This document shows, one piece after another, positions 14,578 to 33,890 of a DNA stretch of 64,000 nt (the first letter of the stretch is position 1; every line of letters begins with the position of its first letter). The notes beneath the pieces are model-generated. The model saw only the letters and a list, made by a program, of their open reading frames with translations, had not been told where the DNA came from and searched no databases. The position numbers and the translations under genes were made by a program. Origin of the DNA: a virus; the IMG/VR virus record IMGVR_UViG_3300027983_002383; one strand, 5' to 3'.

Positions 14578-14769
14578 ATGGACGATATTAAAAAGGTTGA
14601 TAGGGATATGGATGCTGAAAAACAAAAAACCCAGATAAAGAAAGAAAAGTTTATAAGGGATATCAAAGGTGGTCTCGGTAACCACATCAAAAGAAACGGT
14701 GGTGTGGTTAAAAAAATAAAGAAATCCCGATTTAAAGTATTTTGGGGTAGGTTAATGAATATGTTTTAA
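14578..14769 (+). CDS. small basic hypothetical protein
   Basis: ATG after promoter. Confidence 0.65.
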   Translation: MDDIKKVDRDMDAEKQKTQIKKEKFIRDIKGGLGNHIKRNGGVVKKIKKSRFKVFWGRLMNMF

Positions 14770-14770
14770 C

Positions 14771-14992
14771 ATGAATTTAGAAAAAATTTTACAGATTACT
14801 AACGAATGTATCACTAATGATGTCATTGAAATCGAGGGGTTAACCATTAGTTATAAATTAACTGAAGAAGTCCATAAAAAATTGGATGAGGAATTGTTTT
14901 TAAATACGAATAGTAACTTAACTAATTTTGTACATAATGAGGTAATAGAACTTAATTTAGGTGGTATTACCTTTGTCTTTGAGATAATCTGA
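14771..14992 (+). CDS. small hypothetical protein
   Basis: ORF. Confidence 0.65.
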   Translation: MNLEKILQITNECITNDVIEIEGLTISYKLTEEVHKKLDEELFLNTNSNLTNFVHNEVIELNLGGITFVFEII

Positions 14993-16056: not shown

Positions 16057-16076
16057 TTTCATTATTACTTAGAACT

Positions 16077-16142
16077 CTAATTTAGTACCTCCTTAACAAT
16101 TCTATGTAGATCCGATTCTTTTAATCTAACTATTTTTTTCAT
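16077..16142 (-). CDS. leader-only minigene MKKIVRLKESDLHRIVKEVLN (21 aa)
   Basis: Hand-translated; preceded on its strand by ATATTTAT (plus 16162..16169); resembles the shared leader family. Confidence 0.55.
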   Translation of the reverse strand: MKKIVRLKESDLHRIVKEVLN

Positions 16143-16214
16143 GTTAATTTAGGTTATCTTTATAAATATTAAGTATAGTGTAAAAATATAGAAATATGTT
16201 GATATTTATATTAT

Positions 16215-16286
16215 ATGGAAGATTTTGATAAATATTTGGATCAGTTGGTGGAAAACTTTTATGATACTGGAAATTTTGATATTTAA
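16215..16286 (+). CDS. 23-aa acidic mini-ORF MEDFDKYLDQLVENFYDTGNFDI
   Basis: ATATTTAT at 16202, 5 nt before ATG; divergent from leader minigene. Confidence 0.35.
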   Translation: MEDFDKYLDQLVENFYDTGNFDI

Positions 16287-16319
16287 AATAAAATAGTTAT
16301 ATTTATATAAAAAAGAATT

Positions 16320-16961
16320 ATGGGTTGTGATGTACATATGTTTGTTGAAAAGTATAATAATAATAGTGGAGAATGGTCACCGATTGGTAAGGTTCTTCCT
16401 GATATGGTTGCTATAGATAAGATTGTAAAATTTATGACCCACCATTTAGGTACTACACATAAAGAAGGTAAAGAACTGATTTTTAAATTCTTAAAAGGTG
16501 TAAAACCAACAACCAAATTCGAAGACTATGTTTTAAATATATTTTTACCTGAAGAAGTCCCTATGGAAGATGATGGATATAACTGGTGGGACAATGAAGG
16601 TAAATTATCATACCCATTTACCAGAGAACCATATAGTGGTAGAAACTACAATTTATTTGGTGCTTTGGCTAATGTGAGGAACTATACTATGGAAAAGGTT
16701 GCTGAATGGGAAAGAGGGTTGCCTGATGATGTTTCAGACGATATATGTACATTGAGTGATGAATGGGGTATTGATGGTCATTCCCACAACCATTTATATA
16801 TGGATGAGTTAGTTAATAGTAAGTATTATAAAATGACAGAAGATGAGTTAAATGAGTTAGGGTTAGGTACTCACTTTTTTAATGATACAGTGAATAATAT
16901 ATTAGATTTTGTTGATGCTGACTCTAAAGATATTAGAATAGTTTTTTGGTTTGATAATTAA
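16320..16961 (+). CDS. conserved phage hypothetical protein
   Basis: MGCDVH..VE, RNY.LFGALANVR, HSH, RIVFWFDN pattern typical of a phage family. Confidence 0.7.
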   Translation: MGCDVHMFVEKYNNNSGEWSPIGKVLPDMVAIDKIVKFMTHHLGTTHKEGKELIFKFLKGVKPTTKFEDYVLNIFLPEEVPMEDDGYNWWDNEGKLSYPFTREPYSGRNYNLFGALANVRNYTMEKVAEWERGLPDDVSDDICTLSDEWGIDGHSHNHLYMDELVNSKYYKMTEDELNELGLGTHFFNDTVNNILDFVDADSKDIRIVFWFDN

Positions 16962-18621: not shown

Positions 18622-18624
18622 GAC

Positions 18625-18636
18625 GTTCTTTGAAAA
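18625..18636 (+). promoter_or_regulatory. boxA-like antitermination element
   Basis: GTTCTTTGAAAA between DUF2828 stop and first structured RNA. Confidence 0.45.
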
Positions 18637-18640
18637 ATAT

Positions 18641-18795
18641 TTTGTGGTCTTAAGGAATAATTGCAGCAAATTAAACTTAAAACTAGGTCAGAGGGGCTTT
18701 GATAACCCCCCTAACTTTAAAAGGTGTAAATCGTTTGTAAAAACGATATATATCACTGTTAGGAAAAAGTGTCAAACCGATTCCGTAACCACAAA
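18641..18795 (+). ncRNA. structured ncRNA candidate 1
   Basis: 5'/3' closing stems TTTGTGGT/ACCACAAA and GGAAT/ATTCC; internal hairpins GGGG/CCCC, ATCGTTT/AAACGAT, CACT/AGTG. Confidence 0.6.
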
Positions 18796-18802
18796 TGTAT
18801 TA

Positions 18803-19058
18803 GATGTAAACGAATGGTTTCCGCAAAAAACCTACAAACTAAAAATAGAAACAGGTTTTCTACCCCCTTTACCTAAACGAACATAAAGGGGTTAACCATA
18901 GGTGAGGTTTAAATGGGATTGTCCCAACCTTTAGGTTATAAAACAGACCTCTTGAATTTGTCTCAAGTAAAATAAAGACATTCAGTGGGACTGAATTAAC
19001 AATCTACCGTAGGGACAGTCACTACGTAAAATAAATACTGAATCACCATTCCGACATC
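18803..19058 (+). ncRNA. structured ncRNA candidate 2, related to candidate 1
   Basis: Closing stems GATGT/ACATC and GAATGGT/ACCATTC; internal TAGAAA/TTTCTA, CCCCTTTA/TAAAGGGG, GAGGT/ACCTC, ATTCAGT/ACTGAAT. Confidence 0.6.
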
Positions 19059-19066
19059 GAATCATT

Positions 19067-19106
19067 AAAAGAGGGTATTTTTTCATTAAAGTATCCTCTT
19101 TTTTTT
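19067..19106 (+). terminator. intrinsic terminator
   Basis: AAAAGAGGGTAT/GTATCCTCTTTT plus T-run closing the DUF2828-ncRNA unit. Confidence 0.75.
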
Positions 19107-19177
19107 GTGTAAACATTTACTGTTGAGGTTTTCTTCAGTAATATTAAACCAATAATAAGATATGATAAAATGAAAAA

Positions 19178-25475: not shown

Positions 25476-25793
25476 ATGGACTACAGAATAAAACACCACC
25501 TAACTAACATAAGGATAATGATGTTAGAGATAAGGGAACGAATTAATGATGTTGTTGAGATAAATGAGTCAACAGTTCGTAGTTTATATCTTAATTTAAT
25601 AACAGAGAATTATGATACTATTATGATGTATCATGGGGAAGAGTTTACAACAGCGGTAATGGAACTATATGCTGAATGTGAATTATATGAAACATGTGCA
25701 CTTATGAGAGATAATATAAGTTTTGTGAAGGAATTAATAGAAACACTAAAGGAAGATGAAAAAGATGGGATACGAAACACCACTACCATATAA
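25476..25793 (+). CDS. hypothetical protein
   Basis: ORF. Confidence 0.65.
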   Translation: MDYRIKHHLTNIRIMMLEIRERINDVVEINESTVRSLYLNLITENYDTIMMYHGEEFTTAVMELYAECELYETCALMRDNISFVKELIETLKEDEKDGIRNTTTI

Positions 25794-25965
25794 AAATGAA
25801 TCACGTGAAAGATATAAAAAAAGATTAGACACACATATTAAATTTATCAAAGAAAATAGTATATGGTTTAAATTATTTAATTTATCTAAAAAAAGAAAGA
25901 AATGAAATGGACAGTAACAACAACATATGGAGATATCAATTTCAAGTATGTTATAATAAAAGAAG

Positions 25966-26454
25966 ATGAAAAGAAATAGTTATAAAAAAAGATTAAAATT
26001 AATTAGTGAAGATATTAAAAGGGTTTTTGATAATTTACCTGAAGAATATATGGATTTACCTGTTAAGGGGTATGAAGACATTGGTACTTTACTAAGTAAT
26101 ATTGAAATTGCTTCAGACTTAAAAAGTGAGGAGTTTATAAATTGGAAACCAAAGTTTGAAATTCCCACACACGATCCACAAACAGGAGAATTGAACCCTT
26201 ATTATGAAATATTAAAAGGTTGGAAGAATCCATTATTATGTGAAGAATATAAGGATATGAACCCAACACTTAAAACAGACTATTTGGATGAGAACATTTC
26301 TAAGATGCCAGATCAAAAATTACATCAGATAATATCCTTCATCAAAAGTGGTGTGAGAATAGTGGGGTATATTATTATACCCTTTAGTTTGTTTTGGGCT
26401 GTATGCTGGCTTATATTGAGTGAAGTGATAGGTATAGTTGAAGAATTAGTGTAA
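25966..26454 (+). CDS. hypothetical protein with C-terminal hydrophobic segment
   Basis: ORF. Confidence 0.65.
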   Translation: MKRNSYKKRLKLISEDIKRVFDNLPEEYMDLPVKGYEDIGTLLSNIEIASDLKSEEFINWKPKFEIPTHDPQTGELNPYYEILKGWKNPLLCEEYKDMNPTLKTDYLDENISKMPDQKLHQIISFIKSGVRIVGYIIIPFSLFWAVCWLILSEVIGIVEELV

Positions 26455-26476
26455 ACAAATAAATAAATAATTAATT

Positions 26477-26662
26477 ATGATTATCAACAGAAAAAGAAAC
26501 GAAGGAATGGAAATTGAGTATTTGGTTTTTACAATTTTTAGGTTTAAAATTTGGATAACTAAATCAAAGTATTTTAGCAAATACCCAAGGATTGTTATTT
26601 GGAAATTGTCAAAAGACCCAAATGTAGGTGCGTTAAAAACGTGGTCGGTTAAGTTCGGCTAA
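26477..26662 (+). CDS. small cassette-like ORF
   Basis: Stops 6 nt before attC-like site 1. Confidence 0.6.
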   Translation: MIINRKRNEGMEIEYLVFTIFRFKIWITKSKYFSKYPRIVIWKLSKDPNVGALKTWSVKFG

Positions 26663-26668
26663 ATGCAC

Positions 26669-26760
26669 CTATAACGTGTTAAATATGGTGAGTAGCCGCC
26701 AATAAGTTTGCTACGAAGAACAAATGTTTAATCGGCTATTCACTATATTTTGTGTTAGCC
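26669..26760 (+). mobile_element. attC-like site 1 (92 bp)
   Basis: CTATAAC ... GTTAGCC ends; 17-bp imperfect inverted repeat AATATGGTGAGTAGCCG / CGGCTATTCACTATATT. Confidence 0.65.
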
Positions 26761-26775
26761 ACTTTACGGTAAATT

Positions 26776-27042
26776 ATGACAGATACATTTAGATACTTCA
26801 TTAGAAAAAACTTCCCTGGAATTGGAAAAATAAGTAATGAAGATATAGACGAAATAGGAATTGAATTTCATAAACACTTGGATAGTAAATTAAATGATGA
26901 ACAAAAGATCAAGATACTACCTAAAAGTGTAATGGATATAGTAATGAATAGCAATCATCCATTTAAAACAAATGGATTTGAACCTGCTTATGTACTACAC
27001 TTTACTCAATGGGTAAAAGAACAACAGGAAGCACAGATGTAG
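26776..27042 (+). CDS. small cassette ORF
   Basis: Between attC-like sites 1 and 2. Confidence 0.65.
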   Translation: MTDTFRYFIRKNFPGIGKISNEDIDEIGIEFHKHLDSKLNDEQKIKILPKSVMDIVMNSNHPFKTNGFEPAYVLHFTQWVKEQQEAQM

Positions 27043-27048
27043 TATTGC

Positions 27049-27249
27049 TGCCAACGGTTAAGCTATGTTTAGATTTTTAACGGACAAATAAATAGAATAT
27101 TATGGATAGTAGAGAATTTTTAGATAATGAATTATTAGATGTGCCGAGATTCAAAATTGAGTACCCAAAAATGTATGAAGATATAATATCCATAATGGAT
27201 AGATACCACCGGGAGCAAGTTGAAAAATTGAACATAGATAATGTTAGCA
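27049..27249 (+). mobile_element. attC-like site 2 (201 bp) with ORF in its loop
   Basis: TGCCAAC ... GTTAGCA; arms CTATGTTTAGATTTTT / AAAAATTGAACATAG with one extra base on left arm. Confidence 0.55.
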
Positions 27250-27272
27250 ACCAACGCAACTTAAAAGGATAA
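27102..27272 (+). CDS. 56-aa ORF inside attC-like site 2 (not in ORF track)
   Basis: MDSREFLDNELLDVPRFKIEYPKMYEDIISIMDRYHREQVEKLNIDNVSNQRNLKG. Confidence 0.6.
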   Translation: MDSREFLDNELLDVPRFKIEYPKMYEDIISIMDRYHREQVEKLNIDNVSNQRNLKG

Positions 27273-27276
27273 TAAA

Positions 27277-27474
27277 ATGAAAATAATTATTGAAAGAAAC
27301 CAAAACGAAAGCCAATCACCAATAGTAACAATAGATACTACAACGTGCCACTACCCTTATGATATTAGAGGAGCGATAGAGTTGGCTTTGGAAATAGACG
27401 GGCACTCTAAAGAAACAATAAAAGAGGTATTTGGAATAATGCCTGATGCTAAATGTGAAGTAGAAAGCGAATAA
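27277..27474 (+). CDS. small cassette ORF
   Basis: Between attC-like sites 2 and 3. Confidence 0.65.
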   Translation: MKIIIERNQNESQSPIVTIDTTTCHYPYDIRGAIELALEIDGHSKETIKEVFGIMPDAKCEVESE

Positions 27475-27484
27475 TTTTTATTGT

Positions 27485-27535
27485 AGTTAACGCCCAAATA
27501 AAAGCCGTTTCAATGGCTGTTTATAAGGTGTTATG
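27485..27535 (+). mobile_element. attC-like site 3 (51 bp)
   Basis: GTTAAC-gcccaa-ATAAAAGCC / GGCTGTTAT-aaggt-GTTATGA. Confidence 0.55.
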
Positions 27536-27633
27536 ACAAAGTAAAGTGATTAAAAAACAGGACAAAAAATAAATAAATTATATTATTATGAATATAGATA
27601 AAAAGATATGAATTATAATAAAACAGAAAAAAG

Positions 27634-27900
27634 ATGAATACAGTTGAACTATTAGAAGAAATAAGAAATGATTATGTCAACAAGTTTGACAATGACCCTG
27701 TCATTAAAAGAGTATGCGATGTAATAATTGCTGAATATAAAAATAGAAGTAAAAAATTACTTTTACTTACTGCTGACACACAAAGAGAATTATTAAATGG
27801 TTTTTTAGATTGGGAAGACACTAATGCGAGTGGTAAGGTAAACATTAGAGATGAAAATAACAAATATATAACTGATTTTTTAAAAACTATTAAAAAATAA
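27634..27900 (+). CDS. hypothetical protein
   Basis: ORF. Confidence 0.65.
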   Translation: MNTVELLEEIRNDYVNKFDNDPVIKRVCDVIIAEYKNRSKKLLLLTADTQRELLNGFLDWEDTNASGKVNIRDENNKYITDFLKTIKK

Positions 27901-27908
27901 ACACAAAC

Positions 27909-28544
27909 ATGGAACCAGAAAAGGACATATTTGAACAGTGGGAAGACGAGAGAGCAGCCAAATCATGGATTAGAAATAAACTAGAATTCATTCCATTATG
28001 GTGGGATCGTGATGGTAAGTTTATGTATCGTAACTTTAAAATAGGAGTAGTTAATATTGTATATTGGTTTCCTATCATATGGAAAGATCGTAACTGGGAT
28101 TCATATTATATCTTTGAAATACTCAAACACAAGCTAACATCTCAGGCTAAATATATCGCAGATAAAGACCGACATACAAGAGCACAGCATGATGTTAGAA
28201 ATATGAGAATTTGTGTTAAGTTAATGCAATTAATCCAAGATGATTTTTACGATAGCGAATACTCAGATTACCATAAAACAAAGACTTGGTTTGAACCGAC
28301 AGATGTCAACGATGGTTCATCAACATGGGAATCTCGTCAGTTAGAAGAAAACTTCGATGACTATTTCGCTAAATATCCATTAATTCACAAAAGAGTTTTA
28401 AGTGGTGAAGGAATATTCAAACGAGAAGGTAGAGAAGAAGATAAACAAATAATAGCAATGAATATTGGATTAATCAACCAATCAAGAGCACAAAAACTAC
28501 TATTTAAAATAATGGAACAAAATATATTAGGATGGTGGGATTAG
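27909..28544 (+). CDS. conserved phage hypothetical protein
   Basis: WFPIIWKDRNWD..YIFEILKHKL pattern. Confidence 0.7.
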   Translation: MEPEKDIFEQWEDERAAKSWIRNKLEFIPLWWDRDGKFMYRNFKIGVVNIVYWFPIIWKDRNWDSYYIFEILKHKLTSQAKYIADKDRHTRAQHDVRNMRICVKLMQLIQDDFYDSEYSDYHKTKTWFEPTDVNDGSSTWESRQLEENFDDYFAKYPLIHKRVLSGEGIFKREGREEDKQIIAMNIGLINQSRAQKLLFKIMEQNILGWWD

Positions 28545-28573
28545 TTAAATTTTTTTCGTATATTGTAATATAG

Positions 28574-28909
28574 ATGAGAAAGTTACTACAAAAAATAGAT
28601 TGGAAAACTAGGAAATGGAATATAACTATTAAATTTCTAGAAATTACACTCCATGACGGGAATGCTTGTTGGGGGTTTGAATTCTTACAAATCAATAGAA
28701 ACTACACCCCATACGCTCTATTAGCATTTGAGTTTAGATTACCAAATGGTGCTGAACGAAAGGTATTTAGTATTACTAATTGGGATTTTTTATATCTAAG
28801 TACCTATATTAGTAATTGGGTTAGTGATAATGATGAATCGATTTTGTGGGGAAACAAACCCACCGGATATAAAAAAGTATTATATAATATTCTAAATAAA
28901 ATAGTATGA
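28574..28909 (+). CDS. hypothetical protein
   Basis: ORF. Confidence 0.65.
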   Translation: MRKLLQKIDWKTRKWNITIKFLEITLHDGNACWGFEFLQINRNYTPYALLAFEFRLPNGAERKVFSITNWDFLYLSTYISNWVSDNDESILWGNKPTGYKKVLYNILNKIV

Positions 28910-29097
28910 AAGTTGAACAAGTAATAAAAAGTAGAAATATGTCACGTAGAGAAATAATATTATCACAAATAATACAATTACTAGAAGGTCAAATAGTGGA
29001 TCTTATATTGATGTCTAAGATTGAATTGGGTGATGATGTCATAGATGAAATAAAAAGACTAAAAGAACAGTTAAAAATAGAAGGATATGAAAGTTGA
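28906..29097 (+). CDS. small hypothetical protein
   Basis: ORF, overlapping neighbours. Confidence 0.6.
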   Translation: MKVEQVIKSRNMSRREIILSQIIQLLEGQIVDLILMSKIELGDDVIDEIKRLKEQLKIEGYES

Positions 29098-31476: not shown

Positions 31477-32146
31477 GAAAATGGATAAGATGAGTAAAAT
31501 AGAAGACACATGGCAGATCCTCAGGATACAAGCTGAATTTACAAAAGGTTTCGACACCTTTAACGAGATATCAGTACCCTGCGTTTCAGTATTTGGTAGT
31601 GCAAGAACTGAAGAAGGAAGTAAATGGTATGAAGAAGCTAGAGAATTCGCAAAATTAATGGTGGGTAACGGATTCGGTGTGATAACTGGAGGTGGTCCCG
31701 GAATAATGGCAGGTGCAAATAAAGGAGCACAAGAGGTGTCAGGTAAATCTATTGGGATTGGGATAGAACTCCCCTTTGAATCGGGTATGAATAAGTACGT
31801 TGATATGGGGGTGGAGAATAGATACTTTTTCACTAGAAAGGTAATGTTCCTTAAGTATTCACAAGCGTTTGCTGTGTTTCCAGGAGGGCTTGGTACCTTA
31901 GATGAGTTATTTGAGGCTATCACATTAGCACAATGTGGGCATAACATAAAGTATCCAATAGTACTAGTTGGTAAAGATTATTGGTCAGGATTAGTAGAAT
32001 GGTTACGCGATGTAGTGCTTGAAAGTAATAAAATGAGATCTTCTGATTTTGATTTATTTAGAATAGTAGATACGGCAGAAGAAGCTAGAGATAAAATCAT
32101 GGAATATAGAAATACACATGAAAAAAATACATCTACAAACTTTTAA
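31460..32146 (+). CDS. LOG family (TIGR00730-like) nucleotide phosphoribohydrolase
   Basis: VSVFGSAR, ITGGGPGIM.GANKGA, YFFTRK.MF, PGG.GTLDELFE; alternative start 31481. Confidence 0.92.
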   Translation: MKIITKKMDKMSKIEDTWQILRIQAEFTKGFDTFNEISVPCVSVFGSARTEEGSKWYEEAREFAKLMVGNGFGVITGGGPGIMAGANKGAQEVSGKSIGIGIELPFESGMNKYVDMGVENRYFFTRKVMFLKYSQAFAVFPGGLGTLDELFEAITLAQCGHNIKYPIVLVGKDYWSGLVEWLRDVVLESNKMRSSDFDLFRIVDTAEEARDKIMEYRNTHEKNTSTNF

Positions 32147-33782: not shown

Positions 33783-33856
33783 GGTCCCTTAGCTCAGTTG
33801 GTTAGAGCATCTGACTCATAATCAGAGGGTCGAAGGTTCGAGCCCTTCAGGGACCA
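33783..33856 (+). tRNA. tRNA with CAT anticodon, probably tRNA-Ile2 (lysidine type); CCA not encoded
   Basis: GGTCCCT/AGGGACC acceptor, AGCTCAGTTGGTTAGAGC D arm, TCTGA-CTCATAA-TCAGA anticodon arm, GGTTCGAGCC T arm; closely resembles bacterial ileX-type sequence. Confidence 0.95.
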
Positions 33857-33890
33857 CACAACACACTTTGTGTGTTAAAAATAAAGTAGT

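Follow-up and report, generated by a model that had tools for sequence, protein, structure and literature searches.

Integrons are the textbook system for the capture of single genes, and the I2 insertion of the integron integrase IntI is thought to be necessary for recombination of single-stranded attC sites. Xer enzymes act on double-stranded dif sites in the resolution of chromosome dimers, and in T4-type phages promoter-stem-loop (PeSL) modules consist of conserved stem-loops upstream of small accessory genes in hyperplastic regions and have been linked to gene shuffling. A survey with IntegronFinder 2.0 found almost no integrons in Bacteroidetes, Flavobacteriaceae included (PMC9024848), and a 2024 preprint still counted the Bacteroidota as being without integrons (10.1101/2024.07.02.601686). 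Clusters of attC sites lacking integrases (CALINs) have been described in phages including Polaribacter phage P12002L, in which P12002L_attC1 was predicted to be an attC site by HattCI (Qi et al., 2023; PMC9892861). The stretch of DNA analysed here, the 64,000 nt from IMG/VR virus record IMGVR_UViG_3300027983_002383 (the window), carries a run of small genes separated by attC-like hairpins between 26477 and 27900. We put at roughly 80% the probability that 26675-27901 is a short three-cassette mobile array of an integron-like system common to Flavobacteriia and their phages (Table 1).

Five small open reading frames (ORFs) lie on the + strand of this region (26477-26662, 26776-27042, 27102-27272, 27277-27474 and 27634-27900). 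An earlier sequence-only reading of the window had noted three AAC...GTT-bounded sites starting close to the stops of small ORFs, and all three are present where it had placed them, with TAAC or CAAC cores that follow the stops at 26660-26662, 27040-27042 and 27472-27474 by 7-14 nt. The boxes at the three sites match RYYYAAC and GTTRRRY at 5-6 of 7 positions per box with the AAC/GTT core intact, in keeping with the imperfect matches first described. The description of all three sites as imperfect palindromes was right for site 1, where the palindrome is strong, while site 2 is an element of about 200 nt rather than a short palindrome and site 3 is weak. Each site comprises an R'' box (..YAAC), a spacer, an imperfect stem, a variable loop, the returning stem, a second spacer and an R' box (GTTR..).

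Site 1 looks functional. Its R'' core is the TAAC at 26672-26675, in which the crossover would fall between 26674 and 26675, followed by an imperfect 18-bp stem (26681-26698 with 26733-26750) closed by TAACG/TGTTA, a 34-nt loop and the R' box GTTAGCCAC (26754-26762). In a descriptor scan, a purpose-built search of the whole window for YAAC-spacer-stem-loop-stem-spacer-GTTR, site 1 scored 20 against a maximum of 15.5 in shuffled sequence, and no other clear element was found in the 64 kb. The sequence-only reading had proposed an attC covariance model as a check, and our own model of the family (R1, see below) returns site 1 at 97.9 bits (E 3e-22). The site has 82% identity to an unannotated intergenic stretch of Cellulophaga phage phi18:3, its 3' half being identical in phi18:3 and in 8 IMG/VR contigs. 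One 20-mer of the element recurs without mismatch in three Bacteroidota assemblies and nine IMG/VR contigs; a match to it in one more genome (L019) was rejected as due to chance.

Table 1. Features of the candidate cassette array, in window coordinates; the bar in terminal R'' sequences stands at the proposed crossover.
Feature	Coordinates	Strand	Basis
Site 1, intact long attC-like element	26672..26762	+	Descriptor score, covariance model, stem covariation
Cassette A: site 1 body, 88-aa ORF, terminal R''	26675..27054	+	BLASTN homology span
Cargo ORF of cassette A, 88 aa, MTDTFRYF...	26776..27042	+	Conserved protein, function unassigned
Site 2, atypical long element	27052..27251	+	Long-hairpin duplex energy, descriptor score 16
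Cassette B: site 2 body, ORF 27102-27272 (56 aa), ORF 27277-27474 (65 aa), terminal R'' ATTGTAGTTAA|C	27055..27490	+	Homology ends
Site 3, short element	27488..27537	+	Short hairpin, conserved with ORF in L126
Cassette C: site 3 body, AT-rich leader, ORF 27634-27900 (88 aa)	27491..27901	+	L126 homology

Cassette boundaries fall exactly at the TAA|C cores. Cassette A is shared with three contigs (L005, L006 and L101) across 26672-27055/6 at 88-92% identity by BLASTN with no homology outside, the homology starting at the TAAC at 26672 and ending with the AAC at 27055. Its 88-aa ORF is 89-92% identical in three unrelated contexts; in L005 and L006 the cassette lies between terminase-like and portal-like genes, and in L101, a phage-like contig binned with a Cyclobacteriaceae metagenome-assembled genome, it is part of a four-unit array. 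Finding an identical cassette in phages unrelated to one another demonstrates a genuine and recent exchange. The terminal R'' of cassette A in the window is ATTGCTGCCAA|C, decayed from ATTGTGGCTAA|C. For cassette B, similarity to homologues of the 65-aa ORF in L117-L122 stops at 27491-27493, and in L118, L119, L121 and L122 this ORF has a long element of its own, with R' GTTACCCAC and terminal R'' GTGGGTAAC or GTGGCTAAC; the last of these, read on the opposite strand, is exactly the GTTAGCCAC that closes the element at its 3' end. No difference separates L121 from L122 until GGGTAAC, and they diverge from the next base. Cassette C has its counterpart in L126, which is 85.5% identical to 27488-27901 starting at the TAAC at 27488, and its right end is also found in contigs of runs X1 and X2. 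In one freshwater contig (X5) an 82-nt stretch matches 26672-26753 only, and in freshwater metagenome contigs several different left contexts join at 27488/9. The comparison of cassette order among relatives suggested by the sequence-only reading gave boundary polymorphism exactly at the AAC cores, and neither of the refuting outcomes it had named was seen. Its central claim, that attC-like sites bound mobile cassettes, is borne out by these breakpoints together with the R1 match. The ORF-attC layout it proposed stands in that three cassettes are bounded by sites and fails in that each hairpin was assigned to the wrong neighbour.

That each phage hairpin moves with the downstream ORF, and not with the ORF it follows, is seen across the phage copies of the family. 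In every one of them the element ends 12-14 nt upstream of the same-strand ATG of a small ORF, and the ORFs so placed belong to at least five unrelated families. The motif ATTGTGGCTAAC is found at or after the end of each such ORF, in frame as ..NCG-stop in some and past the stop in others, which indicates a signal at the level of DNA. In an alignment of 11 diverse long elements (A6), AAC and GTT are invariant in 11/11, pairing in the 18-bp stem reaches 96%, and 12 of the 18 pairs show compensatory changes; none of 500 shuffles reached these values and slid partner columns were only 35-48% paired. Several pairs in A6 are G.U, one of them invariant on the + strand, and such G.U or G.T wobbles identify the window + strand, which is ORF-sense in phages, as the better-folding strand.

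The relation between neighbouring sites was followed in nine arrays, six from phages and three chromosomal, with eight positions outside the core compared. Complementarity between the R' of one site and the R'' of the next extends to 5.1/8 positions, as compared with 2.6/8 for the two boxes of one hairpin and 2.58/8 for random pairs (p = 2.8e-5 and 2.5e-8). Such a pattern is characteristic of integron cassettes, in which the two ends of a circularly permuted unit together make up a single site, and it fits a circular cassette intermediate. On the folding strand the exchange point would then fall after the second A of AAC, equivalent to G|TT on the other strand.

In chromosomes the site family is linked to a recombinase. 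The covariance model R1 was built from A6 and applied to a sample of 151 Flavobacteriaceae genomes, 103 of which contain matches, mostly of a 138-nt variant. Three loci (L114-L116) hold regular ORF-site-ORF-site arrays of 5-7 sites each, with a tyrosine recombinase gene adjoining each array and with ORFs that run opposite to the R1 model strand and precede their own sites, the order of a classical integron. The recombinases of two arrays are 34% identical over their full length and the third is truncated. Of the 151 genomes, 105 have homologues, and at least 25 have one no more than 20 kb from an R1 match on the same contig, where a rough estimate from the few matches per 3-4 Mb genome puts the chance expectation at a few percent. 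Most homologues of about 380 aa lie upstream of and co-directional with cassette ORFs, and the 355-aa recombinase type of L115 is divergent from its array.

The sequence-only reading had named host or phage integron integrases as the agent; a recombinase does adjoin the chromosomal arrays, but it scores below the integron integrase cut-off and has no IntI insertion. The enzymes beside the arrays reach 193.5 and 186.6 bits, matched in two stretches, against the TIGR02249 cut-off of 265, and fall below the cut-offs of integron integrase, XerA, XerC and XerD alike. When aligned to IntI4, residues 204-245 of IntI4, the 42-residue IntI-specific insertion, have no counterpart, and the best solved relative is the XerC-like protein 4a8e. 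Judged by these alignments the array enzyme is a Xer/IntI-like tyrosine recombinase without the IntI-specific insertion and not a classical IntI. Phage-borne relatives were absent from one search, and in others four were found at 25-27% identity with no adjoining sites. On L101, a 90-aa ORF that follows the phage cassette array (16075-16347, minus strand) is a C-terminal recombinase remnant with a degenerate catalytic region; it has 48% identity to the last part of the L115 enzyme.

The Cellulophaga phages provide further copies of the family. In phi18:3 (L011) elements at 14714-14852 and 16340-16469 flank the DNA methylase gp032 and small genes upstream of gp037; the latter, a tyrosine recombinase (SAM_5 type) beside two elements, proved unrelated to the chromosomal enzyme and no link was drawn. 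Comparison of the close relatives L013, L014 and L015 with L001 (phi46:3, phi13:2, phi19:3 and phi18:3) revealed common flanks and differing small genes within an island opposed in direction to the structural module. In phi46:3 a long element of its own is inserted at the stop codon of a common 130-aa gene.

A mechanism can be proposed on the model of integrons. The window + strand would be the counterpart of the recombining 'bottom' strand of a classical attC, and single-stranded DNA is the probable substrate. A tyrosine recombinase would cut the AAC core between A and C, a cassette would be excised as a circle in which the terminal R'' closes onto the cassette's own R', and the circle could re-enter at another site or at a stray AAC. 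Chromosomal cassettes carry the ORF before their own site; in phage cassettes the ORF is inverted, which puts the site 12-14 nt before the start codon and lets the genes follow phage transcription. Since the window contains no recombinase, this phage would be acted on by the Xer/IntI-like recombinase of its host, and the cargo genes are probably accessory. Beyond the locus itself, we lean slightly towards the broader proposal of an undescribed and widespread integron-like capture system in Flavobacteriia and their phages, with a Xer-like recombinase lacking the I2 insertion, inverted phage cassettes and a host enzyme through which even lytic jumbo phages without a recombinase of their own would exchange accessory genes one at a time, both with unrelated phages and with bacterial chromosomes.

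Sites 2 and 3 look atypical or partly decayed, leaving site 1 as the only one that appears intact, and the window array may as such be largely frozen. At site 2 the R'' core is CAAC (27052-27055, crossover probably between 27054 and 27055), and an imperfect stem of 19 bp (27063-27081 with 27219-27237) encloses a 137-nt loop holding the ATG at 27102, with R' GTTAGCAAC at 27243-27251. The small local palindrome at this site shows no folding (z +1.1), while the long duplex has an energy of -23.8 kcal/mol compared with -13.1 +/- 3.5 in random segments of the window, 0.8% of which equal it. Start codons within the hairpin loop, with the 3' arm and R' coding, occur in two elements of L101 (16827-16964 and 16558-16691) as in 27052-27251 of the window. 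By hand count under the rule of the array test, 5/8 positions are complementary between the R' of site 2 and the R'' of site 3. At site 3 the R'' core is TAAC (27488-27491, crossover probably between 27490 and 27491), and arms at 27496-27506 and 27515-27524 enclose the loop GTTTCAAT and are followed by R' GTTATGAC (27530-27537). Short elements in L006 (646-697) and P12002L_attC1 resemble it, element lengths across the family ranging from about 50 to about 200 nt.

In four freshwater metagenomes the segment 27447-27628, site 3 with some 90 nt behind it, has 10-20x the summed contig depth of its flanks, and many different sequences abut at 27488/9 and at 27577-27581, so that the 'head' formed by this segment is a module of very high abundance that precedes a variety of ORFs. 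A contig in each of two runs connects 27614 back to 27479, which would be a tandem or circular form of 136 nt. The segment 26446-26537, at the start of ORF 26477-26662, has about 2x the contig depth of its flanks together with assembly-graph breaks and may be another shared module.

Several observations weigh against the reading of 26675-27901 as a mobile array. Of the three sites, which lie within 0.9 kb, R1 matches only site 1; site 3 taken alone is not significant (z about -2). No recombinase was found among the 49 window ORFs of at least 140 aa, in agreement with the absence of an integrase noted by the sequence-only reading, and four of five near-complete relatives of 236-322 kb are without a tyrosine recombinase while none of the five has an R1 match. 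The latter point to a system that is sporadic in this phage lineage. The terminal R'' of cassette A matches its own R' at only 3/8 positions, because three bases of the terminal motif differ from those in the L006 and L101 copies; cassette B retains 5/8 R'/R'' matches. The right end of cassette C lacks a canonical R'' and lies directly against the conserved core gene at 27909. Neither an excised circle nor an empty site was observed in the metagenome contigs, the only data used, which cannot reveal excision and in which gaps in coverage carry no weight. Finally, P12002L_attC1 gave no verified recombination in an assay with IntI1, being the one of six sites that was not recombined (PMC9892861).

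The main alternative is that the elements are regulatory hairpins (promoter, leader RNA or terminator) belonging to phage morons, and that conserved boundary repeats allow their shuffling through homologous or microhomology recombination, as has been proposed for PeSL modules. The fixed distance of 12-14 nt from element end to same-strand ATG in phages, the 100% conservation of the 3' half of site 1 among unrelated phages and the near-identical heads before different ORFs would all suit such hairpins, and the G.U wobbles fit the folding of a sense RNA as well as that of single-stranded DNA. In the chromosomal arrays, however, the family is antisense to the ORFs and hence is not in general a 5' leader or promoter. 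Signals of the expected kinds are likewise missing from the elements: Rfam 15 gave only chance-level matches over 25500-29000 (E above 5), a scan for sigma-70-type promoters, which excludes Bacteroidota-type promoters, found no excess (20 promoter-like sites where 18.4 are expected, none of them associated with an element), and no intrinsic terminator with GC-rich stem and T-run was present at the elements, the single terminator-like site lying elsewhere. By eye, the Bacteroidota promoter motif TAnnTTTG is present with one base off in the 3' arm of site 1, and no tRNA was found near the three sites. The complementarity between the R' of one site and the R'' of the next and the link to a tyrosine recombinase are unexpected for regulatory repeats, and the junctions fall at one dinucleotide step instead of being spread over the repeat. 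We regard an explanation by regulatory hairpins as unlikely.

Ends or relics of single-strand transposons (IS200/IS605 or REP/RAYT), or a miniature inverted-repeat element beside genes, would also account for imperfect hairpins that are flanked by conserved tetranucleotides, present many times in a chromosome and often located at contig ends. No HUH transposase was found beside the arrays examined, where the neighbouring enzyme is instead a tyrosine recombinase, each unit has one hairpin rather than two different ends, and the cargo ORFs are varied and stand in ordered arrays, all of which makes a transposon origin very improbable. That the three sites are chance palindromes in AT-rich intergenic DNA, as the insignificance of site 3 and of the local fold at site 2 and the chance-level motif counts across the window might suggest, is scarcely credible given the E value that refutes chance for site 1, the covariation in the stem and the homology breakpoints exactly at all three cores.

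Across the whole 64 kb the motif counts are at chance level, which confines the signal to the 26477-27900 stretch, and an energy scan of all TAAC...GTTA pairs did not discriminate and was set aside. Elsewhere in the window, a 550-nt intergenic region (18622-19177) contains a marginal TAAC...GTTA hairpin at 18712-18761 with a descriptor score of 11.5, of which about 1 is expected by chance, and a terminator-like hairpin near 19066-19100. On the + strand at 31658-31670, ATGGTGGGTAACG is the cassette-end motif with two mismatches, and no adjoining hairpin was detected.

Relatives of the core gene at 27909 are spread over 80 viral contigs, the longest of 322 kb, making a large freshwater phage plausible as the source of the window, and none of the small ORFs of the window is kept next to the core gene in these relatives. 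Elements are few at the 80 loci of related large phages, with 28 matches against 12 in shuffles. Most likely the three cassettes are sporadic acquisitions in a hyperplastic region, with a host enzyme acting during infection. The window also encodes a tRNA-Met (33783-33857), a sigma-70-family factor, a DnaJ-like chaperone, two DNA methylases, a sulfatase-like protein and a poly(A) polymerase head domain. The 88-aa protein of cassette A has 41 homologue clusters, all unnamed, with conserved residues evident in an alignment (A8), and is modelled by AlphaFold2 as a helical bundle with a mean predicted local distance difference test (pLDDT) score of 92. Structure searches gave no fold match for it and PHROG no match, and no known family was found for the cargo proteins.

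If correct, the occurrence of hairpin-site cassettes in Flavobacteriaceae (some two thirds of the genomes sampled) and their phages would extend integron biology to a major aquatic group, with a natural recombinase apparently handling attC-like sites without the IntI-specific domain, which bears on the evolution of IntI from Xer enzymes. It would likewise provide a concrete mechanism for single-gene mosaicism in the accessory regions of phages. Within an incomplete coverage of the literature, no published account was found of the arrays in chromosomes, of their recombinase or of the reversed polarity, and none of these is mentioned in the study of phage CALINs (PMC9892861).

The system resembles sedentary chromosomal integrons in its folded imperfect palindromes with invariant AAC/GTT, variable in length and sequence yet conserved in structure, and in a probable crossover at G|TT, circularly permuted cassettes and arrays beside a tyrosine recombinase of the Xer/IntI branch. 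It departs from them in a recombinase that scores 187-194 bits and is without the 42-residue IntI insertion, in phage cassettes whose ORF is inverted relative to the site, in the failure to identify an attI or a cassette promoter (Pc), and in its Flavobacteriaceae host group. With phage CALINs (PMC9892861) it would have in common attC-like clusters without an integrase in virulent phages, and P12002L_attC1 is itself an R1 match (L132 30001-30062) and so belongs to the hairpin family of site 1, whereas the sites in that study were handled as classical attC for IntI1. As in PeSL modules, stem-loops stand directly 5' of small accessory genes in large phages; unlike them, the elements have no sigma-70 promoter signal, run antisense to genes in the arrays of bacteria and are associated with a tyrosine recombinase. 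With respect to Xer/dif and archaeal XerA, the recombinase is about equally close to XerA, XerC, XerD and IntI, but unlike in Xer systems its gene adjoins arrays of hairpin sites and cassettes.

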